A stretch of DNA of 64,000 nucleotides from Phototrophicaceae bacterium (GTDB lineage Bacteria > Chloroflexota > Anaerolineae > Aggregatilineales > Phototrophicaceae): the NCBI GenBank assembly GCA_965207905.1, contig OZ242316.1, positions 4,163,848-4,227,847 on the forward strand, read 5' to 3'. Made by a program: the position numbers and the translations under genes. This document shows, piece by piece, positions 6,851 through 45,697 of the stretch. A model generated the notes under the pieces. The model did not search any database. It was not told the DNA's origin and was given only the letters and a program-made list of their open reading frames with translations. Within the stretch, counting starts at the first letter, position 1. The number at the start of each line of letters is the position of its first letter.

Positions 6851-7249
6851 TTATCCTTCCTGTATAAAGTCGCTGACATCAACATCGACGATGAGGTCCT
6901 CGCCGTCGACGATTATCGGGTAGGTCTTGACGCGCACCGCCGGATCGACCAGGCACTGGCCGCTGGCGATGTCAAATTGCCAGGCATGCCAGGGGCAGCG
7001 GATGATCTCGCCCTCGCGCTCGTAGCCGACAAAGCCGTCCGTCAGCGATGGCGGCGCTTCTGTGCTGCTGCGCCCGGCCACTTCGCCGGTGCAGAGTGGT
7101 CCGCGCTTATGCGGGCAGATATTGCGCAAGGCGTAGTAGGCGCCCTTCACGTTGAAGATGCCGATGCCGGCGCGCCCGCGGAAGGGCACGATGATTTTGC
7201 GCCCGCCGTCCGGGATTTCCGCGACGTTGCCGACCACGATGCCGCTCAC
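6851..7249 (-). CDS. Stand-alone Rieske [2Fe-2S] domain protein
   Basis: 132 aa with CPH...CPWH cluster ligands (NICPHKRGPLCTG ... IIRCPWHAWQF). It overlaps the upstream amidohydrolase gene stop by 4 nt. Confidence 0.8.
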   Translation of the reverse strand: MSGIVVGNVAEIPDGGRKIIVPFRGRAGIGIFNVKGAYYALRNICPHKRGPLCTGEVAGRSSTEAPPSLTDGFVGYEREGEIIRCPWHAWQFDIASGQCLVDPAVRVKTYPIIVDGEDLIVDVDVSDFIQEG

Positions 7250-8430
7250 GCCACGACCGCCTCGATCATGTCGTCCGTAATGCGCAGCATGTCCAGCGCG
7301 TTCTCGGCGAAGATGCGCCGGTGCATGCGCTCGTCCAGCTTGGGCAGCACGGTCACCGGGTCATTCCAATCGAAATGCGGGAAGTCGGTGCAGAATATCA
7401 GCGTCTCATCGGCGTGTAACATCTCCAGCATTTGGTAGACCTGCTCGGTCCGCGGCGGCTCGTGCATGGGCTGGGAGCCGATGCGGATATGCTCGCGGAA
7501 GTATTCGCTGGGCGGGCGCTTCAGCCAGGGCGTCTGGTCGCCGATGGCTTTCCAGTCCGTGTCCATGTGCCACATCAGCGGCACGGCCCACATTTGCTGC
7601 ACTTCGATCAGCGCGACTTTGAAGTTGGGGAACTTCTCGAAGACGCCCTCGACGATCAGCGAAGCCGCCTGCGCGCTGGCCACGCTGGGGCGGGTCATGC
7701 GGTTTTCCATGTAATAGCTGGGGAAGCCGACCGGCGTGAGCGTCGAACCCGGGCTGCCGCCGCCGATATGCGAGACCACGGGCAAATCGTGCTCGGCGCA
7801 GGCCTCCCAGATGGGATGGTACCTGCGCTTGCCGAAAAGGTCCGGCGTCTGCATCGGCATCATGACGGCGGCCGTGTCTTTGCGATGCGCCAGGCGGTGA
7901 ATCTCCTTGACCGCCAGCGCCGGGTCGTTGGGCGCGACCAGGATGGCGTTGACCACGCGCGGGTCTTTGTCCAGCCAGTGCTCGATCGTCCAGTCGTTGA
8001 ATGCCGTGCAGAGCGCCGCCGCCCAATCGGGATCGGGCAAGCCGGCCACGGCCAGGAAGACAGGCGGGCCCGTCAGCAGGGCGAAGTCGATATTCCAGCG
8101 GTCCAGCAGCTCTTTCTGCGTGAATTCCAGCGAGAAGTTGAAGTCCCGCTCTTGCAGCGCCGGGTCCTTGATATCGGGGCGCGTACGGCGGAAGGGCGTA
8201 TTGGCATAGCCGCTGCCCGGCAGGTGCAGCCCCTGATCGAGCAGGTGCTCCTGATAGAACTTGGGCAAATAGGGCAGCAGCTGATGCGGATCGTGGAAGT
8301 TGTGGTGGACGTCGCAATCGACCAGCTTGACGCGGTCGGCGGGTTTGCCTGTCCAGCCCGGTGCGGCGATGGGCGCGGCGCCTTTCTTGCCGATGTGGAT
8401 CTGTGCGAGTTTATCGGCGGTTTGAGTCAT
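7246..8430 (-). CDS. Amidohydrolase family 2 (ACMSD-like metal-dependent hydrolase/decarboxylase)
   Basis: The ORF track starts at a TTG at 8442. I prefer ATG 8430 (MTQTADKLAQIHIG), which is preceded by GGAGGGA. It has the VDCDVHHNF metal-binding motif and a family-typical length. Confidence 0.75.
   Translation of the reverse strand: MTQTADKLAQIHIGKKGAAPIAAPGWTGKPADRVKLVDCDVHHNFHDPHQLLPYLPKFYQEHLLDQGLHLPGSGYANTPFRRTRPDIKDPALQERDFNFSLEFTQKELLDRWNIDFALLTGPPVFLAVAGLPDPDWAAALCTAFNDWTIEHWLDKDPRVVNAILVAPNDPALAVKEIHRLAHRKDTAAVMMPMQTPDLFGKRRYHPIWEACAEHDLPVVSHIGGGSPGSTLTPVGFPSYYMENRMTRPSVASAQAASLIVEGVFEKFPNFKVALIEVQQMWAVPLMWHMDTDWKAIGDQTPWLKRPPSEYFREHIRIGSQPMHEPPRTEQVYQMLEMLHADETLIFCTDFPHFDWNDPVTVLPKLDERMHRRIFAENALDMLRITDDMIEAVVA
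8375..8430. repeat. Direct repeat copy 1: the first ~55 nt of the amidohydrolase CDS, duplicated at 9103-9152
   Basis: gcggcgcc...gccgatgtggatctgtgcgagtttatcgg...cat recurs at 9103-9152. The shared blocks are gcggcgcc, gccgatgtggat and gcgagttt, about 80% identical by eye. Confidence 0.75.
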
Positions 8431-8626
8431 ATCTCCCTCCAATGTCTCCCCGCAGCCTGAGAGCAGGAGAGAATACTTGAACCGTGGCCTATGCCGTAAT
8501 TCAAAACAACCCAGGCCATCAGGCGCAAATCAGATGCGAGAGGGCCCAACACAGAACTTGATGAGAGCATATGGTGCGGTTATGTTGCCCGCCTTTCTGA
8601 TGTTGGGTTACCAGTTGCCGTGCCCC

Positions 8627-8983
8627 TTAGGCCGCGGAGTCGGCTTCGCTTTGGGACGCAAATCGATCCTCGCGACCTTCAAACCTGCCTTCCAGCCGCG
8701 CCAGGCGTTGGTTGCTGTCGTCAACTTTTGTCTCGACAGTTTCGATTCTTTTCTCCAACCTCTGAATGTCGTTTTTGAGTTCCTGGCGAGTCTCGGCGAT
8801 GTCGTTTTTGAGTTCCTGGCGAGATTCGGCGATGTCCCCTTTCAGTTCCCGGCGCAAGTCAGAAATATCGCCTTCGAGCTTGTCGCGCACTTCGGCGATT
8901 TTTCCGTCCAGACGCCAAACGGCGCCAAAGATTACCAGAATTGTAATGACAACGTCCAACGATAGCGATGTGTCCAGGGTCAT
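8627..8983 (-). CDS. Small membrane-anchored coiled-coil protein with 11-aa tandem repeats (function unknown)
   Basis: 118 aa. An N-terminal TM helix (LSLDVVITILVIFGAVW) is followed by DISDLRRELKG / DIAESRQELKN / DIAETRQELKN / DIQRLEKRIE repeats. The opposite-strand ORF 8477-8965 looks like a shadow of it. Confidence 0.55.
   Translation of the reverse strand: MTLDTSLSLDVVITILVIFGAVWRLDGKIAEVRDKLEGDISDLRRELKGDIAESRQELKNDIAETRQELKNDIQRLEKRIETVETKVDDSNQRLARLEGRFEGREDRFASQSEADSAA
8768..8899. repeat. 4 x 33-bp in-frame tandem repeat inside the coiled-coil gene
   Basis: The units are 8768-8800, 8801-8833, 8834-8866 and 8867-8899. The first two differ at only 2 of 33 positions. Confidence 0.85.
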
Positions 8984-9053
8984 TGGAATCCCTCTCCTTC
9001 ACGTGCCGCTAGTCTACAGCATTTGCGGCGGGTTGGCAAAGTTATCGCGCGGA

Positions 9054-9152
9054 CTACGACAGACGGTTGCTTTGAGGCAGCCAGGCATCAAGGCGAACTG
9101 AAGCGGCGCCTCTCATGCCGATGTGGATTTGAGCGAGTTTGTCGGGTTGCAT
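9054..9152 (-). pseudogene. Orphan 5-prime fragment copy of the amidohydrolase gene (direct repeat copy 2)
   Basis: The minus strand from ATG 9152 reads MQPDKLAQIHIGMRGAA..., against MTQTADKLAQIHIGKKGAA in the intact gene at 8430. It stops after 32 codons. Confidence 0.6.
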
Positions 9153-9205
9153 GGTTTGCCCCAGATTGCGCTAGCAGTCTCCGGATTACGAAACGCTCGT
9201 GTCAC

Positions 9206-10555
9206 TTAGCGACCCATTTTGCGGATTTCTTCTAGTTGCTCTTCGCCAAGCTCAAACCACCTGCCTTTTCGGCGCTGCTGACGGTAGCGCTTGTGCAGGA
9301 AGCTTTTGAAGGACTGAGCATGTGCCGCTCGAACTACGCATTTGAATCTAATTGGCATTGAGGAAGCACGCAACTCACGTGGGCTGTTCAACTTACGCGC
9401 GCGCCAACTGTATCTGGTCCAACGCTTGGGCTGTCGACTACTCCAGATCTTCCTGCGCTCACCGCACTGTACGCCTTGTACGCCTTGTACGACACAAATA
9501 TAGCCAGCGTCACCCTCCAAGCGAGGGTATTCGCGGAAGCCCTCTGTCGGCAAGGTCTCAAGCCCAAAATGCGTCTTAGGACCCACGTAGAGGCTGCCGT
9601 GAACAAAAGCCCCTTTAGCCGACTGCTTAAATTCTCCGAGCTCTTCCTGTGTCAGTTCAACCCATTCGGTTCCATTCTTGCGTTCTGACGGCGACAGTAG
9701 CGATTCCACTGCCTTTTTGATTTTGTCTACCTTCAAGATCAAGACGATCTCTAGCGGAAAACGAAGCGACGTTTCCAGAAATGCCGCCTCAATGGAATCC
9801 ACGGGATGATCGTCAAAAAAGATCTTGCTCCGCCGGGCATCGTTGTCTCGAATGATGCAAATGTATCCAGACTTGCCCTTCGCCTTTGGTAGGTCGCGGT
9901 AATTCTTGTCCAGAACGCTTTCCCACTCCCAATCCAATTCGGGAATAGTCGAAAAGTCATCGAATTCGGATTCAGGTTCAACAGGATCATCTACTTCGTC
10001 AGCTTGCGTTTGTTTGGACTGCACGTTGACAAACATTGTCTTTGCCAACGCCTTTGCATGTTTGAACAGCTGTTTCCCTAACTCGAGGATTTCTTCGCCG
10101 ACTGGCGCCATTCCAAGAGAGTCTCCTGTAACGGCAATTACTAGCGCGGCGATAACAGATATCTCACGGCTCCTACGCTGATTTAGGGTGAACCACTGGC
10201 CTCTTCTAGTGCCCCTTGCGTAAGCTTTCCGCAGCTTTTTCTCCAAGGCACTTGCGTCCTTCGCCGGAATGATTAATACAAAATCCTGAGACTCTCCCAT
10301 ATGTGAGCGCAGTTGACTATCACGCCAGGGTGGTCTAGCGCGGTAGCCAGACTTGAATCGCTCGCCATTTGACTTATCTTTGATTACATAGACAAAACCT
10401 GCGTTGCCAGACTGTTCGGGCCTGTTGTTGCTGTCAGCATTTGCCAATGAACCATCAAATTGTCTTAGAATTTCAAGGATAAAGCGGATTGCTGGAAAGT
10501 GAATGCGCGCCTCGTTGGCGATTGCGACAGCTTGTAAGAATGCTCTCCAATTCAT
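9206..10555 (-). CDS. Hypothetical protein with three tandem GIY-YIG-superfamily (T5orf172/MUG113-like) modules
   Basis: 449 aa. Three segments each begin G[FY][VI][YC][VI][IV] and end in a basic stretch plus (Q/E/R)W(F/V)(T/E)L. They are aa 53-126 (GFVYVIKDK...RGQWFTL), 230-305 (GYICIIRDN...GTEWVEL) and 351-440 (GYICVVQGV...KGRWFEL). Confidence 0.45.
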   Translation of the reverse strand: MNWRAFLQAVAIANEARIHFPAIRFILEILRQFDGSLANADSNNRPEQSGNAGFVYVIKDKSNGERFKSGYRARPPWRDSQLRSHMGESQDFVLIIPAKDASALEKKLRKAYARGTRRGQWFTLNQRRSREISVIAALVIAVTGDSLGMAPVGEEILELGKQLFKHAKALAKTMFVNVQSKQTQADEVDDPVEPESEFDDFSTIPELDWEWESVLDKNYRDLPKAKGKSGYICIIRDNDARRSKIFFDDHPVDSIEAAFLETSLRFPLEIVLILKVDKIKKAVESLLSPSERKNGTEWVELTQEELGEFKQSAKGAFVHGSLYVGPKTHFGLETLPTEGFREYPRLEGDAGYICVVQGVQGVQCGERRKIWSSRQPKRWTRYSWRARKLNSPRELRASSMPIRFKCVVRAAHAQSFKSFLHKRYRQQRRKGRWFELGEEQLEEIRKMGR

Positions 10556-10622: not shown

Positions 10623-11624
10623 TTACCCCGGCCGCAGCTCGCCCAGCGACCGCTCGCCTTGCTGAATGTAGCCCGCCACCGGGCTCTCAATGCGTCCGTA
10701 GGCATTCCAGATTTTGAAGCCCAGAAGCGCCAGCAAGTCGTCGTCCGCTTCCGCCACTACCTCGGGCGCGGTGGCCATGGTGAAGTTGACCTGTGTGCGG
10801 AATTGCGGCGCCACAAAAGTCGTCAGCACACCCAGCCGCTGCTGATCGCTGACGTTGGCGCCGGTGCCGTGCCAGATGCGCCCGTCGAAGAGCATGGCGC
10901 TGCCGGCCACGCCTTCTGCCGGAATGCTGACCACATCCTTGTCGCGCTCGGCATCGGGGCGGCGGCCGTAGAGGTGGCTGCGCGGCACGATGCGGGTGGC
11001 GCCGATTTTCTCCGTGAAGTCGTTGAGCATCCACATGACGTTGACGACCACAGGCGGCGCGATCATGGGCGGGTGGTCATCGACGCGGTTGCTTAGCTCG
11101 CGCGTCAGTGAGCCGGCCGGCACCGGATTGGGGTTGCGATGGATCGGCTCGGGCATCCACCACTGGTCGGTGTGCAGGTTCATGGCGATGCCGCCCGGCT
11201 TGGCAATGTTGGCGCCGTAGCTGGAGAGCAGATAATCCGCGCCTAATACGTGCCCGACGACCGCGCGCATGGTCTTCTGCGCCAGCAGTTCGCGCCAGAT
11301 CGCGCCCTTGTTGATCAGCATCCAGACGCGCTGGTTGACGCCGCCGGCTTTGGCGGAGAAAGCCTCGCGCCGGACGCGCCCCTCGTCGTCGGTGAATTGG
11401 CCCCACTGTTGTTTGGCGCCGCCGTCTTCAAAGGCGTTGCCGCCTTCAAGTTCCGCCTGCGCCTGTTCCATCAAGCGTTGCTTTGCCGCGGAAAGCTGGT
11501 CGGGGGTGATCGCGTTTTTCATCAGGCAGTAGCCGAATTCGTCGATGTTGGATTGCAAGGTGGCGACGTCGGTCGTCGGTTGTGGTAGTTCTTCGTGTGT
11601 CCAGTTGAACATAGAGTATTGCAC
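10623..11624 (-). CDS. Phytanoyl-CoA dioxygenase (PhyH) family Fe(II)/2-oxoglutarate oxygenase
   Basis: 333 aa with an HxD motif (NLHTDQWW) and a distal His (DGRIWHGTGAN). Confidence 0.8.
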   Translation of the reverse strand: MQYSMFNWTHEELPQPTTDVATLQSNIDEFGYCLMKNAITPDQLSAAKQRLMEQAQAELEGGNAFEDGGAKQQWGQFTDDEGRVRREAFSAKAGGVNQRVWMLINKGAIWRELLAQKTMRAVVGHVLGADYLLSSYGANIAKPGGIAMNLHTDQWWMPEPIHRNPNPVPAGSLTRELSNRVDDHPPMIAPPVVVNVMWMLNDFTEKIGATRIVPRSHLYGRRPDAERDKDVVSIPAEGVAGSAMLFDGRIWHGTGANVSDQQRLGVLTTFVAPQFRTQVNFTMATAPEVVAEADDDLLALLGFKIWNAYGRIESPVAGYIQQGERSLGELRPG

Positions 11625-11772: not shown

Positions 11773-12108
11773 TCAGCGCAAAATCGAACGAATCACTTTG
11801 AGCGCTTCAGTAACAACATCGTCAGGCGCATTCACTATAAACTCAATGTTGCGCGTTCTCCAATCAAGAGACTTAACCTGATGAGTTAGAATCACGCCCT
11901 TCACGCGCAAATCATCTGGCAATGGAATTTCAAATCGATATCGCTTGGCGCGGCTTGTGATTGGACATACCAGCGCCAATCCCATCCGGTGGTTGAACGA
12001 TGTGGGAGAGACAATTAGCGCTGGCCGATGCCCCGCTTGCTCGTGCCCGGATTGGGGATCAAAGTTCATCCAAGCGATATCACCGCGCTTGGGAATATAA
12101 TTCACCAC
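11773..12108 (-). CDS. mazF: Type II toxin MazF/PemK family endoribonuclease
   Basis: 111 aa. IPKRGDIAWMNFDPQSGHEQAGHRPALIVSP...LALVCPITS is the canonical MazF/PemK pattern. It overlaps the upstream antitoxin gene by 7 nt. Confidence 0.9.
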   Translation of the reverse strand: MVNYIPKRGDIAWMNFDPQSGHEQAGHRPALIVSPTSFNHRMGLALVCPITSRAKRYRFEIPLPDDLRVKGVILTHQVKSLDWRTRNIEFIVNAPDDVVTEALKVIRSILR

Positions 12109-12350
12109 CAGACCTCTTTACCGACGGCCGGTCCTACGTCCCATTCCTCCGGCTCATAGTCGTCCGGGACGCTTGCCAGGAGCTCGTCCAGGTCGTAATG
12201 GTCCTCTTCTACGGGAACAATCCGCAGTTCTCCATCCACGGACATAATTTCTACCTTTGTGCCCAATTCCAGTCCAACTTCTACAGCCAACGCCTTCGGT
12301 ATACGCACGGCTCGACTATTGCCCCATTTCTGTATCGTCGTTAACATCAT
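12102..12350 (-). CDS. mazE: Type II antitoxin MazE (AbrB/SpoVT fold)
   Basis: 82 aa with IQKWGNSRAVRIPKALAVEVGL and a C-terminal acidic tail ending GKEVWW. Confidence 0.9.
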   Translation of the reverse strand: MMLTTIQKWGNSRAVRIPKALAVEVGLELGTKVEIMSVDGELRIVPVEEDHYDLDELLASVPDDYEPEEWDVGPAVGKEVWW

Positions 12351-12436
12351 TCACACTCCGTGTCTAAAGCGAAGTTTAATTCTACAATTTGTCTGCCTTG
12401 CTTTTCTAGCTCATGACAGCCGACTTTGCTCAGCGA

Positions 12437-12682
12437 TCACCAAACCTCATTGCCGACAGGAGGACCGAGGCCCCAGTCTTCCGGCTCAAAATCATCCGGT
12501 ACACTCTCCAGCATTTTATCCAAATCATAGCGCTTTTGCTTACGAGCGCGCTTGATGCGGATTTCCCCGTCCACCAATTGCATATCCACCGCTTGCCCAA
12601 AGTCGAGCCCTGCTTCTTCAGCCAGGGCTTTTGGGATGCGCAACGCTCGGCTGTTGCCCCATTTAGTAACCTTGGTTAACAT
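12437..12682 (-). CDS. Orphan MazE-like AbrB-fold antitoxin (no adjacent toxin)
   Basis: The ORF track gives 12437-12721; the likely start is MLTKVTKWGNSRALRIPKALAEEAGL at 12682. It ends PPVGNEVW like the cognate MazE. Confidence 0.8.
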   Translation of the reverse strand: MLTKVTKWGNSRALRIPKALAEEAGLDFGQAVDMQLVDGEIRIKRARKQKRYDLDKMLESVPDDFEPEDWGLGPPVGNEVW

Positions 12683-12695
12683 GATAGCTTCCGTT

Positions 12696-12708
12696 TCTAC
12701 ATTGTAGA
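12696..12708. promoter_or_regulatory. 13-bp palindrome TCTACATTGTAGA upstream of orphan mazE copy 2 (putative operator overlapping a TACAAT -10)
   Basis: It has perfect 6-bp arms. The 21-bp box atgtatctacaatgKagaaac is shared with copy 3 (13076-13088 region), and a TTCTACAAT half-site also lies upstream of mazE at about 12380. Confidence 0.4.
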
Positions 12709-12789
12709 TACATACTAACACGGACAGATGTCATTTACAAATTTTGGCGTCTTTTGCCGACTGATAGATGATTGAACGTAGTTCGTGCA

Positions 12790-13059
12790 TTAAGGTTGTG
12801 ATCTGGTATATAGGCCACTACCAGACCTCGTTGCCAATAGGTGGACCCCAGTCAATTTTCCGTGCCGATTTTCCGGCGTAATTTGAGCGACCAGTTCCTC
12901 AAGCGTATAGTGAGGTTTATGCTGATGAACGACGTGCAAGCGCCCATCCTCTGCGCGAAGTTCAACCTCGATGCCGACTTCGAGCCCGGCTTCTTCCGCC
13001 AATGCCTTCGGGATACGCACTGCCAGGCTGCTTCCCCATTTCTGAACTTTAACTAGCAT
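12790..13059 (-). CDS. Third MazE-like antitoxin copy with a frameshifted C-terminus
   Basis: The likely start is MLVKVQKWGSSLAVRIPKALAEEAGL (13059). After ...ENRHG the frame reads KLTGVHLLATRSG..., while the neighbouring frame encodes KIDWGPPIGNEVW-stop (stop at 12828-12830). That second reading is the family-typical tail, so a 1-nt indel near 12855-12860 is implied. Confidence 0.6.
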   Translation of the reverse strand: MLVKVQKWGSSLAVRIPKALAEEAGLEVGIEVELRAEDGRLHVVHQHKPHYTLEELVAQITPENRHGKLTGVHLLATRSGSGLYTRSQP

Positions 13060-13075
13060 TTCAACCCTCGATGTT

Positions 13076-13088
13076 TCTCCATTGTAGA
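13076..13088. promoter_or_regulatory. Near-palindrome TCTCCATTGTAGA upstream of mazE copy 3 (same box as 12696-12708)
   Basis: It has one arm mismatch relative to the copy-2 palindrome and sits at the same distance from the start codon. Confidence 0.35.
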
Positions 13089-13221
13089 TACATGCTACCA
13101 TTGCTTTATCTTGCGCTGCAGAATAATGTGTCGCGCTCAGCGACAGTTGCTCGCGACCGGGCAATATATACGCTAAAATAGATTCATATTGTAAATACTT
13201 ATTGCTAGCGAGGCCCTAGAG

Positions 13222-27948: not shown

Positions 27949-28935
27949 ATGATCAGCAGAGGGCGCTCCCGCCGGACGACCATCATCACCGTCTACGTTA
28001 TGGTGGTCGTCCTGCTCTTTCTCGGGCGGCAGTTGGCGGCGCCGATGGTCTCACCCGTCCGCGAAACGGTCAATGACGCGCTGATCTTCATCTCGGACAC
28101 CGACTCGATCGACGCCGGGCGCGACTCTAATTCGGTTTACCGCATCGGGCTGGACGGGCGCGGATTGAAACGCATCGCCGGCTCCATATCGCATGGCGAG
28201 GGCTACCTGCGCACAACAGACATCGATTGTCACCCGGCGTCGCAGCAGCTGGTTATCGCCAGCCATCGGCGCGATCTAAACGGCTTCCACCACGCCCTGC
28301 TCGATGGCTCCGGGCTGCATCTGGACAAGCCGGCTACCGGAGACATGCTGTCTGCTACGCGGCAAATCGCCATAGCACCGGACGGCAGGGGCATCGTCGT
28401 CTCGCGCCAATTCGAAGACTTTGAAGAACCGCGCTTCGGCCTGGTCGCCGGCGATCTGATTAACCGCGATTTCGACATTGTCAAAGCGCCAACCTTGGAT
28501 CAGTCGTATATCTCGCCGAGCTTTTCACCCTCTGGGCGCCTGCTCGCCTACATCGTCAAGCGCTATGATGCTGCTGCCAGCTGGACCTCCCGGCTGGTCA
28601 TCGCCGTTCCCGCCGGGCGTACGGAGTGGGTCATCGCCGAGACGCGCCTGCAGATAAGCGATATAGACTGGTCGCCGACGGGCGAGTGGCTGGCGCTGGT
28701 GGCGGATGGGCAAATCTACCGCATTCACGGCACAGGCGGAGAGTTCACGCGGCTGACCGACCACCTCGGCGGCGCGACCTCGCCGCGCTGGTCGCCGGAT
28801 GGCGGGCGGATCAGCTACGTGACGGCTTCGACCTTCCCCGGCGTTCAGCAGATCATGATCATGAATGCCGATGGCTCGGGCAAGCGCCAAGTGACCACAA
28901 TCCGCGGCGATGTGACGAATGGCTGCTGGGTGTGA
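27949..28935 (+). CDS. TolB-like PD40/WD40 beta-propeller repeat protein, membrane-anchored or secreted
   Basis: 328 aa. An N-terminal hydrophobic segment is followed by PD40-type repeats (SPSFSPSGRLLAYIV, DWSPTGEWLALV, SPRWSPDGGRISYV). It ends ...IRGDVTNGCWV. Confidence 0.75.
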   Translation: MISRGRSRRTTIITVYVMVVVLLFLGRQLAAPMVSPVRETVNDALIFISDTDSIDAGRDSNSVYRIGLDGRGLKRIAGSISHGEGYLRTTDIDCHPASQQLVIASHRRDLNGFHHALLDGSGLHLDKPATGDMLSATRQIAIAPDGRGIVVSRQFEDFEEPRFGLVAGDLINRDFDIVKAPTLDQSYISPSFSPSGRLLAYIVKRYDAAASWTSRLVIAVPAGRTEWVIAETRLQISDIDWSPTGEWLALVADGQIYRIHGTGGEFTRLTDHLGGATSPRWSPDGGRISYVTASTFPGVQQIMIMNADGSGKRQVTTIRGDVTNGCWV

Positions 28936-28936
28936 G
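28900..28936. repeat. 37-bp direct repeat DR1 (the 3-prime end of the PD40 gene)
   Basis: atccgcggcgatgtgacgaatggctgctgggtgtgag matches 30061-30097 at 34 of 37 positions. Confidence 0.9.
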
Positions 28937-28964
28937 ATTGTCGAGTCCCTTGCTTGGGCCCGCC

Positions 28965-29369
28965 TTATTCGACTTCCCAATCTTCGACGTTCAAGCCGGG
29001 AATCCGCTCAAACTCGCTGATGTTATGTGTAACTACGATTAATCCCCTGGCGCGAGCAATGGCGGCTATCAGCATGTCGTGTTTGCCAATAGGAGAGCCG
29101 CGCTTTTCCAGAAAAGCGCGAATGCCGCCATACTCTTCCGCGGCGTCGTCATCAAAGGGTATACTTTCGAATTGCCGCAGAAAGTCGTCTTGTTTGGCGC
29201 GCGAACGTTCCGGCGTCTGACTCTTGCTGGAACCATAATACATTTCGCCCTTCGTAATCGCGCTTATGACGATGTCTGAAGAGGACTTGCTGTTAACTTG
29301 ATCGCGAACGCGGGGTGCTCTGCCATTGATATAATTTATGCAAGCATTGGTATCAAGCAAGTATTTCAT
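28965..29369 (-). CDS. vapC: PIN-domain toxin VapC
   Basis: 134 aa with MKYLLDTNACINYI...ISAITKGEMYYG...HDMLIAAIARARGLIVVTHNISEF, which includes the PIN acidic residues. Confidence 0.9.
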   Translation of the reverse strand: MKYLLDTNACINYINGRAPRVRDQVNSKSSSDIVISAITKGEMYYGSSKSQTPERSRAKQDDFLRQFESIPFDDDAAEEYGGIRAFLEKRGSPIGKHDMLIAAIARARGLIVVTHNISEFERIPGLNVEDWEVE

Positions 29370-30043
29370 TCACGCCGATCTTCATTCTCTACATATTCCG
29401 GCGGATGCCATTCAATCGGGTCGTCAGCCAGGCTGCCATAAGTCCGCTCGACGAAATCCGCCCAAGACATCTCGTGATCGTCTGTCGCGCCTTCCCGTCC
29501 CGCAGCGGGAATTGCTTCATGGTCGGTGGCTTCGATCGCCCTCAGCGTTGCCGCGAACGCGGGATTCTGCGTATCCGTAAAGCGTTCAAGGCAAGCGTCG
29601 TCCCGAAATAGCGCCCCGTCGGGCAGGATGGCGCCTGCGAAATCAGCATCGACAACGTCTGCGTCAGCCAGCCGCGCTCCCAACAAGTTTGCCCGATGCA
29701 GATTCACATGAGTCAGATTCGCTCCCTCCAGGCAGGCAAAACGCAAGTCCGCCATACCCAAGTTTGCTCGGCGCAGGTCTGCGCTATTGAGACTTGCGCC
29801 ATACAGGCGCGCTTGCCTCAAATTTGCGCCTTGCAGGTCACTTTCGCGGAGATTTGCGCCATCAAGAACAGCTCCGGCCAAATTCGCCCGGCGCAGGCTG
29901 GCGCCCGCCAAGTTCGCGTCCCGCAAATCGGCGACCGGTGCATCCTCGTGGCGGTCACCAACCGCAATGGTCTGTTGCTGCGTGTTTATCACAATCAGTC
30001 TGCTCAGCGAATCTAGGCCATGTCGTTGAACTGAGTGTATCAC
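29366..30043 (-). CDS. Pentapeptide-repeat protein in the antitoxin position of the VapC module
   Basis: 225 aa with a GTG start. About 20 consecutive A(D/N)LxG-type pentapeptides are present (ANLAGASLRRANLAGAVLDGANLRESDLQGANLRQARLYGASL...). The C-terminal tail is MSWADFVERTYGSLADDPIEWHPPEYVENEDRRE. There is a 4-nt ATGA overlap with vapC. Confidence 0.75.
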   Translation of the reverse strand: MIHSVQRHGLDSLSRLIVINTQQQTIAVGDRHEDAPVADLRDANLAGASLRRANLAGAVLDGANLRESDLQGANLRQARLYGASLNSADLRRANLGMADLRFACLEGANLTHVNLHRANLLGARLADADVVDADFAGAILPDGALFRDDACLERFTDTQNPAFAATLRAIEATDHEAIPAAGREGATDDHEMSWADFVERTYGSLADDPIEWHPPEYVENEDRRE

Positions 30044-30060
30044 AGGTGGATTACGATTTC

Positions 30061-30097
30061 ATCCGCGGCGCAGTGACGAATGGCTGTTGGGTGTGAG
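30061..30097. repeat. 37-bp direct repeat DR2 (orphan copy of the PD40 gene 3-prime end)
   Basis: atccgcggcgcagtgacgaatggctgttgggtgtgag encodes IRGAVTNGCWV-stop, with no gene body in front of it. Confidence 0.9.
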
Positions 30098-42556: not shown

Positions 42557-44275
42557 ATGTCCCAAACCGCCAAACGCAGCCAAGATTTCTTCAGCGCCGA
42601 GGGCGTCAGCGGCCTCATCCGCCGCGCCTTCACCGCCGCCTCGGGCTACGAAAGCGACGACATGTCCCGCCCGCTCATCGGCATCTGCAACACCTACAGC
42701 GAGCTCAACCATTGCAACAGCCACCTGCGCGCCGTCAGCGAAGCGGTCAAACGCGGCGTGCTGCAGGCCGGCGGCTTCCCGCTCGAATTCCCCACTATCT
42801 CGCTGGGCGAGGTCTACCTCAGCCCGACCTCCATGCTCTGCCGCAACCTGGCCGCCATGGACACCGAGGAGATGATCCGCGGCAATCCGCTCAGCGGCGT
42901 CGTGCTGCTGACCAACTGCGACAAGACCACGCCCGCCGCGCTGATGGGGGCCGCCAGCGCCGACCTGCCGACCATCATGGTCAGCGGCGGGCCCATGCTC
43001 AACGGCCACTTCCAGGGCGAAATCCTGGGCGCTTGCACCGATTGCCGCCGCTACTCGGCCGAGTACCAGGCGGGTACGATCAGCGCCGAGACCTACCAGG
43101 GCGTCGAGAAGAATCTGGTGCGCAGCGCCGGTCACTGCATGGTGATGGGCACGGCATCGACAATGAACTCGCTGATGGAGGCGCTGGGCATGGCGCTGCC
43201 AGGCAATGGCGCCATTCCCGCGTCAGACTCGCGCCGTCTGCAATTGGCGCAGGCGGCCGGGCGGCAGATCGTCCGCCTGGTCGAGGCCGATATCCGCCCC
43301 TCGCAGATCCTGACCGCCGCTGCCTTCGACAATGCCATCACGCTGCTGAACGCGGTCGGCGGCAGCACCAACGCCATCGTGCACCTGCCCGCGATCGCCG
43401 GCCGGGCCGGCGTCGACCTGCCGCTCTCGCGCTTTGACGAGATCAGCCGCCGCACGCCGCTGATCGCCAATATGCGCCCGACGGGCGACTACCAAATGGA
43501 AGACCTCTTCTACGCCGGCGGCATCCCGGCCGTGCTGAAAGAGCTGCTGCCCCTGCTGCACGGCGACGCCCTGACCGTGACCGGCCGGACCATGGCCGAA
43601 AATGTCGCTGACGCCGACATCAGCAATAGCGATATCATCCGCTCGCTGGACAACCCGCTGCAGCCGGAGGGTGGCTTGAGCATCTTGCGCGGCAACCTGG
43701 CGCCCGATGGCGCGGTCATCAAACACGCCGCCGCCACGCCCGCGCTCTGCAATCATCGCGGCCCTGCCCTCGTCTTCAAAGATGCCGCTGATGTTGCGGC
43801 GCGCATTCACGATCCCGCCCTGGACGTCACGCCCGATCACGTGCTGGTGCTGCAGAACGCCGGGCCCATCGGCGGCCCGGGCATGCCCGAAATCGGCAAC
43901 CTGCCCATCCCACAGAAGCTGCTGGAAGCGGGCGTGCGCGATATGGTTCGCATCTCCGACGCCCGCATGAGCGGCACGTCATACGGCGCCATCGTCCTGC
44001 ATGTCGCGCCGGAAGCTGCGCTGGGCGGGCCGCTGGCGCTCGTGCGTGATGGCGATGAGATCGAGCTGAATGTGGCCGAGCGGCGTTTGCAGCTGCACGT
44101 CTCCGAGGCCGAGCTGGCGCAGCGCCGGGCCGAGTGGTCGCCGCCCCCGCCGGCCTACTCGCGCGGTTACGGCCAACTCTACTTGCGCAGCGTCAACCAG
44201 GCGCCGCAGGGCTGCGACTTCGATTTCCTGCGCGGCAGCGACCCGGCCGGCCCCGTCTGGCAGCCGAAGTTTTAG
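42557..44275 (+). CDS. IlvD/Edd family dehydratase (dihydroxy-acid or sugar-acid dehydratase)
   Basis: The ORF track starts at 42431 inside the repeat. The likely start is MSQTAKRSQDFFSAEGVSG (42557). It has CNSHL, TNCDKTTP and MVMGTASTMN motifs. Whether it is IlvD proper or a sugar-acid dehydratase cannot be told from the sequence alone. Confidence 0.85.
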   Translation: MSQTAKRSQDFFSAEGVSGLIRRAFTAASGYESDDMSRPLIGICNTYSELNHCNSHLRAVSEAVKRGVLQAGGFPLEFPTISLGEVYLSPTSMLCRNLAAMDTEEMIRGNPLSGVVLLTNCDKTTPAALMGAASADLPTIMVSGGPMLNGHFQGEILGACTDCRRYSAEYQAGTISAETYQGVEKNLVRSAGHCMVMGTASTMNSLMEALGMALPGNGAIPASDSRRLQLAQAAGRQIVRLVEADIRPSQILTAAAFDNAITLLNAVGGSTNAIVHLPAIAGRAGVDLPLSRFDEISRRTPLIANMRPTGDYQMEDLFYAGGIPAVLKELLPLLHGDALTVTGRTMAENVADADISNSDIIRSLDNPLQPEGGLSILRGNLAPDGAVIKHAAATPALCNHRGPALVFKDAADVAARIHDPALDVTPDHVLVLQNAGPIGGPGMPEIGNLPIPQKLLEAGVRDMVRISDARMSGTSYGAIVLHVAPEAALGGPLALVRDGDEIELNVAERRLQLHVSEAELAQRRAEWSPPPPAYSRGYGQLYLRSVNQAPQGCDFDFLRGSDPAGPVWQPKF

Positions 44276-44844
44276 CTGGGGAAGAGGCGCTGCAAGTCCA
44301 GCGTGAAACCGGGCAAGACGTTCTCGCCGCTCACGCTGCCGTCTTGCGCGACAAACTCGCTGACGGGCTGTCCTTCGGCGTCCGCGCGCCACACCTCGAC
44401 GCCCGCCCGCTCCGGCAAAACGAGCCACACCAGTTCGGTTCCGTTTGCCAGGTAGACCGCGGCTTTGCGGCGCTGTTCAGTCAGCGTGTTGCTTGGGGAT
44501 GAGATTTCGACCGCCAAGTCCGGCATGCGGGGGACGAACTTTTCGTGTTCGTCATGCGGCGCAGCCTGCTTTCGCAGAAAGGCGACATCGGGCGCAAGCA
44601 GTGTCTGGCGATCATCGGCGGGATAATAGGCGGATTCGACAGTGCCTTCGCCCAAGTCATGCGCTTCGGCGTAGTTCAAAAGAAAGCGGAAGATATGTCC
44701 TGCAAGTCGTCCATGTCTGTATCCCGGCGCCATATCCCAGAACAGCTCCCCATCAATGAGATAATAATGCTTGAGTTCATTTTCCGGCAGCTGCGCAAGC
44801 CGCCAGACGTCGTCAACTGTGTAGAGCCGCTCCTGAATCGCCAT
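44272..44844 (-). CDS. Uma2 family (DUF820) PD-(D/E)xK endonuclease, copy 1
   Basis: The likely start is MAIQERLYTVDDVWRL (44844). PDVAFL...PDLAVEISSPSN...K...Y is the Uma2 core. Its stop overlaps the convergent dehydratase stop (44272-44275). Confidence 0.85.
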   Translation of the reverse strand: MAIQERLYTVDDVWRLAQLPENELKHYYLIDGELFWDMAPGYRHGRLAGHIFRFLLNYAEAHDLGEGTVESAYYPADDRQTLLAPDVAFLRKQAAPHDEHEKFVPRMPDLAVEISSPSNTLTEQRRKAAVYLANGTELVWLVLPERAGVEVWRADAEGQPVSEFVAQDGSVSGENVLPGFTLDLQRLFPS

Positions 44845-44983
44845 GCTTGCCTCGCGACAATCTCTGAGTAAAGACAATTATAGCGCAATCCTCGCCCCGT
44901 CGGCAGAAGGGTCGGGTGCGCCAATGCGGCATTCATTTCCTGCGCGGGCGCGACCCGGCCGGCCCCGTCTGGCAGCCGAAGTC

Positions 44984-45556
44984 TTAGCTGGGGAAGAGGC
45001 GCTGCAAGTCCAGCGTGAAACCGGGCAAGACATTCTCGCCGCTCACGCTGCCGTCTTGCGCGACAAACTCGCTGACCGGCTGACCGTCGGCGTCCGCGCG
45101 CCACACTTCGACGCCTGCCCGCTCCGGCAAAACGAGCCACACCAGCTCGGTTCCGTTTGCCAAGTAGACCGCGGCTTTGCGACGCAGTTCAGTCAGCGTG
45201 TTGCTTGGGGATGAGATTTCGACTGCCAAATCCGGCATTCGGGGGACAAACTTCTCGTGTTCGTCAGGCGGCGCAGCCTGCTTGCGCAGAAAGGGGACAT
45301 CGGGCGCAAGCAGCGTCTGGCGATCATCAGCGGGATAATAGCCGACTTCGCCGGTGACTTCGCCCAAATCATGTTGTTCGGAGTAGATCAACAAGTAATG
45401 TCCGATGAGAATTTCGAGTCGTCCATGCCTGTATCCCGGCGCCATATCCCAGAACAGCTCCCCATCAATGAGATAATAATGCTTGAGTTCATTTTCTGGC
45501 AGCTGCGCAAGCCGCCAGACGTCGTCAACTGTGTAAAGCCGCTCCTGAATCGCCAT
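44984..45556 (-). CDS. Uma2 family (DUF820) endonuclease, copy 2
   Basis: It has the same N- and C-terminal sequence as copy 1. The patch RLEILIGHYLLIYSEQHDLGEVTGEVGY diverges from RLAGHIFRFLLNYAEAHDLGEGTVESAY in copy 1. Confidence 0.85.
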   Translation of the reverse strand: MAIQERLYTVDDVWRLAQLPENELKHYYLIDGELFWDMAPGYRHGRLEILIGHYLLIYSEQHDLGEVTGEVGYYPADDRQTLLAPDVPFLRKQAAPPDEHEKFVPRMPDLAVEISSPSNTLTELRRKAAVYLANGTELVWLVLPERAGVEVWRADADGQPVSEFVAQDGSVSGENVLPGFTLDLQRLFPS

Positions 45557-45646
45557 GCTTGCCTCGCGACAATCTCTGAGTAAAGACAATTATAGCGCAA
45601 TCCTCGCCCCGTCGGCAGAAGGGTCGGGTGCGCCAATGCGGCATTC

Positions 45647-45692
45647 ATATCCTGCGCGACAACGACCCGGCCAGCCTCTCTGGCAGCTGAAG
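45647..45692. repeat. Third, degenerate copy of the cassette boundary / dehydratase 3-prime end
   Basis: atatcctgcgcgacaacgacccggccagcctctctggcagctgaag compares with atttcctgcgcggcagcgacccggccggccccgtctggcagccgaag at 44223, about 75% identical by eye. Confidence 0.7.
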
Positions 45693-45697
45693 CACTC

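Follow-up and report, generated by a model that had tools for sequence, protein, structure and literature searches.

Insertion with long target duplication was reportedly described by Nobusato and colleagues in 2000, and, to our knowledge, long target duplications around the genes of restriction-modification (R-M) systems have been described since then without an accepted mechanism. Homology-facilitated illegitimate recombination is said to have been demonstrated by experiment in Acinetobacter, Pseudomonas stutzeri, and pneumococcus, by de Vries and Wackernagel in 2002 and by Prudhomme and colleagues in the same year. Replacement-type flexible genomic islands, in turn, are exchanged by recombination in the conserved genes that flank them. 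In their survey of insertions with long target duplication (Nucleic Acids Res 2010; PMC2853133), Furuta, Abe and Kobayashi did not settle on a mechanism; they suspected that R-M enzymes cause double-strand breakage. Here we analyze such an insertion in a stretch of 64,000 nt, called the window below, from the genome of a Phototrophicaceae bacterium (Chloroflexota; GenBank assembly GCA_965207905.1, contig OZ242316.1, positions 4,163,848 to 4,227,847). In this window the first ~50 nt of an amidohydrolase gene stand a second time, as an orphan start, on the far side of a small gene for a transmembrane (TM) coiled-coil protein. The insertion belongs to the class of insertions with long target duplication, which is known and mechanistically unexplained. 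The reading that we favor, with some reservation, is that the orphan is the scar of one-ended homologous recombination, i.e., of homology-facilitated illegitimate recombination that produced an insertion with long target duplication.

The window is part of a complete 4.46-Mb genome, referred to as the own genome, and was analyzed in the context of a genus of 68 species genomes. These genomes are labelled as metagenome-assembled genomes (MAGs) of Phototrophicaceae or Aggregatilineales (Chloroflexota), and their isolate names suggest that many of them come from marine sponges. Genomes and loci are designated by the letters G and L, respectively.

A duplicated gene start brackets a 672-nt insert

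In the direction of transcription, the locus reads PhyH, T5orf172, orphan start, 118-aa gene, amidohydrolase, Rieske, GFO/IDH/MocA, and ABC transporter, all on the minus strand (Table 1). The first-pass annotation of the window had proposed that the amidohydrolase start recurs in a copy that runs into a stop after 32 codons and that the two copies bracket exactly one gene, the TM/coiled-coil gene; formal analysis bears out all three points. Positions 8375-8417 and 9103-9145 align without gaps at 38 of 43 identical positions (MAFFT and blastn), and, when a 6-nt indel is admitted, the match extends to both start codons (8428-8430 and 9150-9152), which is how the ~50 nt are counted. When the entire 4.46-Mb genome was searched with an 81-nt query over the amidohydrolase start, the orphan was the sole second copy (E = 4e-6), the next-best matches being 16-mers (E = 0.06). 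The same repeat was recovered in a whole-genome self-comparison with E = 7.7e-4. Chance similarity of the copies is ruled out by the E values of the query search and the self-comparison. An assembly artefact is ruled out as well, since the assemblies of two other species, G002 and G075, show the same orphan/insert structure, which is therefore present in three species.

The orphan open reading frame (ORF; 9054-9152) has 32 codons plus a stop, and its first 50 nt match the amidohydrolase start; for annotation, this ORF is to be taken as a scar and not as a gene. The homology between the copies ends after GGCGCCGC, and the subsequent 48 nt match nothing found: blastn-short and translated searches gave no source for them in the genome or in 52 loci, and a pattern scan of metagenome contigs returned 0 matches. 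Between the copies lies an insert of 672 nt (8431-9102), the sole plausible gene of which is the coiled-coil ORF, and no transposase, integrase, other mobility gene, or terminal inverted repeat was found in it.

Table 1. Features of the orphan-start locus and of two further repeat-flanked inserts in the window
Feature	Positions	Strand	Evidence or remark
Intact amidohydrolase (Amidohydro_2, 394 aa), first gene of an operon with Rieske, GFO-IDH-MocA, and ABC-transporter genes	7246..8430	-	Pfam PF04909, E=2.5e-26; G+C content at third codon positions (GC3) 0.86, core-like
Gene-proximal repeat copy, 5' end of the working amidohydrolase gene (MTQTADKLAQIHIGKKGAA)	8375..8430	-	Alignments
196-nt spacer from coiled-coil gene to amidohydrolase	8431..8626	-	Carries the ribosome-binding site GGAGGG; IS3 target in G002
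118-aa protein, N-terminal TM helix plus coiled coil on 33-nt tandem repeats (8766-8854)	8627..8983	-	
Promoter-like site TTGCCA-17-TAGACT before the coiled-coil gene	9011..9039	-	Consensus match only; conserved with G071
Post-junction stretch (TTCAGTTCGCC...TCGTAG), closes the orphan reading frame	9054..9102	-	Also found in G002 and G075, after the same joint
Orphan copy of the amidohydrolase 5' end (MQPDKLAQIHIGMRGAA), behind T5orf172	9103..9152	-	
53-nt spacer from T5orf172 to the orphan	9153..9205	-	G004 and G080 have a collinear spacer between T5orf172 and amidohydrolase
449-aa protein with a T5orf172 domain (GIY-YIG-like superfamily) and three repeated modules	9206..10555	-	Pfam PF10544, E=4.2e-7
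PhyH-family dioxygenase, conserved left border of the hotspot	10623..11624	-	Pfam PF05721
37-nt repeat (92%, 3' end of a PD40/WD40 gene; copies 28900-28936 and 30061-30097) around a PIN plus pentapeptide-repeat pair	28900..30097		
Two tandem Uma2 genes between three copies of the last ~55 nt of an IlvD/Edd gene; unit of 712 bp	44213..45695		

The orphan is the old gene start in its old place

The amidohydrolase orthologue was found in 55 of the 68 genomes of the genus, and we compared the region upstream of it in 51 other genomes and mapped its neighbours. The first-pass annotation had suggested a search for empty sites, and these exist: PhyH lies directly before the amidohydrolase gene, at a distance of ~20-80 bp, in 12 genomes (G003, G005, G015, G017, G020, G043, G048, G053, G069, G074, G076, and G077). 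In the other genomes the gap reaches up to 5.4 kb, and its contents are unrelated, comprising an ABC substrate-binding protein, secreted SH3-domain proteins, a trypsin-SH3 protein, T5orf172, small unknown proteins, and, in G002, an IS3 element. PhyH and the amidohydrolase gene are core genes, and the slot between them has different occupants in different species.

Two of these genomes, G004 and G080, carry the arrangement as it is without the insert, namely T5orf172, the spacer, and then a full-length amidohydrolase gene with a single copy of its start. The T5orf172 3' end of the own genome, the 53-nt spacer, and the orphan (ATGCAA...) are collinear with this arrangement; the orphan therefore stands where the gene formerly began. 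The whole stretch from position 9102 down to the present start was inserted behind it, in line with the earlier proposal that the insertion restored an intact gene start on one side and that a decaying copy was left on the other. The gene-proximal copy (8375-8430) presumably came in with the insert; its MTQTADKL-type start is common to the own genome, G002, G075, and G068.

Three sister events carry the tails of donor loci

A profile of the gene start detected orphan starts in eight genomes, which amount to five events when grouped by joint: the own genome with G002 and G075 (break at +56), G012 (+47), G019 (+56), G009 (+71), and G018 with G060 (~+108). All orphans start at the start codon, behind whichever gene precedes. 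The sequence after the break was identifiable in three of the five events and begins with the final 35-60 nt of the gene that stands before the cargo at the same locus of another species. (i) The insert of G009 is 91% identical to G010 over 1124 nt; this G010-like segment begins 50 nt before the stop of an ABC substrate-binding protein gene and extends through a 155-aa gene into the amidohydrolase gene, and the joint shows an 8-nt microhomology (CATCGCCG). (ii) In G018 and G060, the final ~35 nt of PhyH come after the orphan, and after them the cargo that is found behind PhyH in G082; the microhomology is 3 nt (AGC). (iii) In G019, a PhyH tail of ~60 nt precedes a T5orf172 gene most like that of G083, in which PhyH, T5orf172, and amidohydrolase are adjacent; the microhomology here is 0-3 nt. 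The identified inserts are thus cut on the left a few dozen bases inside the preceding gene and are continuous with the amidohydrolase gene on the right.

Judged by these matches, each identified insert is a piece of another lineage's orthologous locus. The first-pass annotation had offered a site-specific or homology-guided cassette insertion. Its homology-guided part is supported and its site-specific part is not: the breaks range from +47 to +108, and the joints use microhomologies. Likewise, the insertion itself stands, and the discrete, self-contained cassette gives way to a chunk of another lineage's orthologous locus as the better description.

One joint is shared by three species

The own genome, G002, and G075 have the same joint at +56 (GCCGC followed by TTCAGTTCGCC) and the same coiled-coil gene; the event is old and common to the two sister species. 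In none of the three carriers does the homology go past this joint at +56, and the fragment thus does not belong to a longer, decayed paralogue. Upstream of the orphan lie T5orf172 in the own genome, an ABC substrate-binding protein gene in G002, and PhyH directly in G075, and the 5' part of the orphan differs among the three in line with its upstream neighbour. One joint with different upstream neighbours implies that the orphan (~50 nt) or the region around it took part in later exchanges, in which the orphan apparently served as a short homology arm.

Further changes are seen in single species. The orphan of G002 has lost 12 nt and the start codon, and an IS3 element lies 47 bp before the amidohydrolase ATG of this genome. 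Only G075 has an A+T-rich insert of ~150 bp between the orphan and the coiled-coil gene (locus L042, 8158-8312), flanked by an 11-12-nt direct repeat, GTCCGCGCG(G/A)TA; this insert may be a miniature mobile element. G068 is as closely related, yet it lacks the orphan, and a small coiled-coil gene of another kind extends right up to its ATG. Finally, the variant at codon 9 is the same in the orphan and the intact copy of each species, namely, GCT/GCA (Ala) in the own genome, GAA/GAA in G075, and GAG/GAG in G002 (loci L013 and L042). These shared variants may hint at gene conversion between copies that are ~0.7-2 kb apart.

Proposed route of the insertion and points against it

According to the one-ended recombination that we favor, DNA of the same locus from a related lineage would have entered the cell, presumably by transformation or another route, and would have carried the TM/coiled-coil gene with its own promoter before its own amidohydrolase gene. 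The right side of the incoming DNA would then have crossed over homologously inside the amidohydrolase gene. The left end, having too little homology for a second crossover, would have been joined illegitimately to the chromosome ~56 nt inside the resident amidohydrolase start. As a result, the resident start would be left stranded upstream, and the incoming start would now serve the gene. In terms of minimal homology lengths, tails of 35-60 nt would not have sufficed for a second homologous crossover. A joint ahead of the start leaves no duplicate, and deep joints would leave long repeats that recombine out, which is presumably why only short orphans survive.

This proposal draws on the repeat, on empty and un-inserted comparator sites, on one joint inherited by three species, and on the donor tails and microhomologies of three sister events. 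The insert of the own genome passes unbroken into the amidohydrolase gene, as a homologous anchor demands. For the own event, the mechanism is carried over by analogy with the sister events at the same site, and this event probably took the same route. Genes for ComEC and DprA are present, and their support for DNA uptake is weak and non-discriminating, these genes being common in bacteria generally.

A number of points speak against the proposal. (i) The 48 nt after the own joint are traced to no gene end or genome, so that neither a donor tail nor a microhomology is demonstrable for the own event. (ii) There is an ascertainment bias in that only joints inside the gene leave a detectable duplicate. 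(iii) None of the five events lies beyond the first ~110 nt of the gene, for which a break-prone site may be an alternative to survivorship. (iv) The shared codon-9 variants also fit a duplication of resident sequence. (v) The route by which DNA enters these uncultured symbionts is itself a presumption.

Alternative explanations

A Campbell-type cycle, in which a circle with the cargo and one copy of the start excises and re-integrates by a single RecA crossover within the ~50 nt of homology, is possible, albeit at low probability. Repeats of this size are recombinogenic here, as seen in the Uma2 unit described below, which is tandemly amplified between gene-end copies of ~55 nt; the PIN and R-M units have clean single-copy empty sites; and the orphan was apparently reused as a homology arm. 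Such a life cycle has also been proposed by the Kobayashi group (PMC2853133). However, it leaves the origin of the first flanked unit unexplained, and five events with differing repeat ends and with tails of neighbours from the orthologous locus argue against one cassette with constant ends. A tandem paralogue, i.e., a second, upstream amidohydrolase gene that lost its body by deletion or replacement and kept its first 56 nt, has real precedents in the genus, where tandem amidohydrolase pairs occur in at least seven genomes. In G047 and G057, a copy of 83% lies upstream of the closer copy (86-93%), in G057 after T5orf172, and the Lys-to-Met codon of the own orphan is shared by the upstream copy of G047. 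This origin nevertheless needs two illegitimate joints instead of one, finds no paralogue sequence beyond +56 in the own genome, G002, or G075, and fails for G009, G018/G060, and G019, in which the tail of PhyH or of an ABC substrate-binding protein gene follows the orphan. We thus hold it to be unlikely, a shade more so than the endonuclease hypothesis considered next.

The T5orf172 gene is an earlier or separate occupant of the same hotspot. In nine genomes (window 9206-10555 and loci L016, L019, L043, L045, L048, L061, L070, and L072) it directly precedes the start of the amidohydrolase gene or the orphan copy of that start, and it falls into three allele groups (own/G004/G080/G050, G044/G054, and G019/G057/G083). 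The alleles share 31-75% identity irrespective of how closely their hosts are related, with no correlation to the PhyH identity of 76-94% (rho = -0.21), a pattern that, from the sequences, resembles that of a site-bound selfish or diversifying gene. Moreover, T5orf172 is itself the cargo in the G019 event. A free-standing homing endonuclease encoded by this gene might cut near the amidohydrolase start, followed by sloppy repair from a cargo-bearing allele. We regard this as doubtful, given that three of the five events (G009, G012, and G018/G060) involve no T5orf172 gene, that nuclease activity of the T5orf172 family is not established, and that the same architecture occurs at other loci without T5orf172. 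In addition, a recognition site should stand out by excess synonymous conservation, of which the first 30 codons have none, the fraction of synonymous differences being 0.29-0.34 there versus 0.32 over the whole gene; any special DNA element in the gene start, be it an operator or a recognition site, was rejected on the same ground. Site-specific integration at the gene start by a tyrosine or serine recombinase acting in trans, or a transposase target duplication, is the least probable. Direct repeats of gene ends are typical of integrase-borne islands, and IS3 and the ~150-bp insert with its 11-12-nt direct repeat landed in the same region in relatives. Against either enzyme stand breakpoints that vary from +47 to +108 by event, the lack of a recombinase, transposase, mobility gene, or terminal inverted repeat in or beside the insert, and the lack of excess conservation. 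The copies are, furthermore, 88% identical with an indel, and their 43-56 nt far exceed the target duplications of insertion sequences, in agreement with the first-pass annotation, which had dismissed a transposase target duplication on grounds of length. A transposon or an integron cassette was rejected since terminal inverted repeats and mobility genes are absent; attC-type structures were not specifically modelled.

The cargo gene and its relatives

The 118-aa protein has generic coiled-coil matches only, below all curated cut-offs, in Pfam, NCBIfam, PADLOC, and PHROGs. The Tandem Repeats Finder detected a period of 33 nt with 2.7 copies in its gene, and the copy number of this repeat varies between species, resulting in proteins of 107, 118, 129, and ~139 aa (G075 locus L042, 8540-8660). 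Its GC3 is 0.62, compared to 0.82-0.86 in core genes, and cargo genes overall range from 0.53 to 0.62. Homologues with 75-89% aa identity were found in G002 (89%), G075 (79%), and G071 only, and the promoter/5' region of the gene gave 0 matches in the metagenome pattern scan. Small TM plus coiled-coil genes of other families fill the same slot in G001 and G068, and a gene of this type also flanks another repeat-bounded insert, at genome position 3525253.

Homologues of the amidohydrolase itself, with 69-75% aa identity, are present in MAGs labelled Caldilineaceae, Poribacteria, Latescibacterota, Acidobacteriota, and Opitutales (loci L118-L153), which probably come from the same kind of samples. 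An identity this high between phyla suggests that co-resident symbionts share genes.

Other repeat-flanked inserts in the window and the genome

The first-pass annotation had noted the same architecture at two further sites of the window and had recommended a genome search for other orphan gene-end copies. The architecture holds at both sites, 28900-30097 and 44222-45695. The first site, with the PIN plus pentapeptide-repeat pair, has a single-copy empty counterpart in at least nine relatives. At the second site, the gene-end copies lie at 44222-44275, 44934-44987, and 45646-45695, giving the order gene end, Uma2, copy, Uma2, and degenerate copy, which looks like the outcome of an amplification through the repeats; after alignment of the boundaries, this order replaced a plain tandem duplication at 44213-45676 as the description of the site.

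The whole-genome self-comparison returned 31 isolated same-strand repeat pairs of 28-220 nt that are at most 15 kb apart. About 12 or more of these are candidates for orphan gene ends, in that they overlap or abut the end of a core gene and bracket mostly ORFs of lower GC3. The cargo includes a TdeIII endonuclease with a methylase, a DUF433/DUF5615 pair, a methylase-HNH fusion, and a NotI-family endonuclease. The TdeIII-type restriction endonuclease and its N6/N4 methylase (C1:760350-762831; GC3 0.44-0.46) are flanked by a 51-nt direct repeat of 98% identity that overlaps a core gene 3' end. At least 11 relatives have the modelled empty site of this unit as a contiguous sequence, and G002 and G003 likewise carry the insert. 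Of five genome sites at which empty sites were examined, three gave no information, since the left flank is accessory DNA itself or relatives have an insert as well. Two toxin-antitoxin-like two-gene units, DUF433 plus DUF5615/PIN-like (C1:3231449-3232299) and an unassigned pair (3118898-3119620), are each flanked by a 45-59-nt copy of a core-gene 3' end. The outer copy of both units sits between two stretches of accessory DNA, as if insertions had been stacked there.

Elsewhere in the window (11773-13164), one MazF toxin gene follows three consecutive MazE-like antitoxin genes (12102-12350, 12437-12721, and 12790-13164), which go with the 101-nt repeat family D4 and number from one to three copies across species.

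We advance, as a tentative idea of low probability, that conserved gene termini act as integrase-free attachment sites in these sponge-symbiont Chloroflexota, with one-ended entry, reshuffling by RecA, and polar arrays. If true, genes for R-M systems, toxin-antitoxin systems, T5orf172, and small membrane proteins would be flanked by copies of core-gene ends of 30-200 nt; RecA recombination on these copies would then multiply, remove, exchange, and stack such units; and each orphan gene end would mark one past capture, as in an integron without an integrase.

Comparison with known systems

The genus of 68 species offers several independent events and still contains both parental arrangements in other species. 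Because both arrangements are preserved, the joints read like a natural experiment, with a donor tail, a microhomology joint, and a homologous crossover. If the favored route is general, insertion with long target duplication would be a by-product of ordinary recombination between strains and not an activity of the cargo, and orphan gene ends could tell how many gene captures uncultured bacteria have undergone, and in which order.

The locus shares features with a number of described systems. (i) As in integrase-borne islands with their att sites, the acquired DNA has a duplicated gene end at its border while the gene itself remains whole; unlike in these islands, there is no integrase and no constant core, and the breakpoints vary. 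(ii) The fixed slot between PhyH and amidohydrolase with different accessory genes in each species is like that of a flexible genomic island. Clean double crossovers at such islands are scarless, whereas the orphan starts are scars of one illegitimate crossover. (iii) T5orf172, at a fixed site beside a conserved gene, sporadic, and with alleles incongruent with the host, would, from these sequence traits, resemble the locus of a free-standing homing endonuclease. (iv) Homology-facilitated illegitimate recombination reportedly combines one homologous anchor with one illegitimate joint at a short G+C-rich microhomology near the anchor, similar to the joints of the sister events at this site. In that process recipient DNA is said to be usually deleted, whereas here the joint lies inside the anchor gene, leading to a short duplication, and the process is deduced from genomes alone.

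The closest match is with insertion with long target duplication. The inserts of that class are below 20 kb and free of mobility genes (here, 672 nt); their direct repeats exceed 30 bp and often overlap a gene end (here, 43 nt at 38/43); and the repeat is single-copy with conserved flanks in insert-free genomes (here, G004 and G080) (PMC2853133). In both cases the repeat length varies from case to case, and R-M cargo is present elsewhere in the own genome. The cargo at this locus is a membrane coiled-coil gene; R-M cargo was a criterion of the survey and not of the mechanism. The locus differs further in its host, an uncultured sponge-associated member of the Chloroflexota, and in sister events whose donor-locus tails and microhomologies suggest a mechanism.

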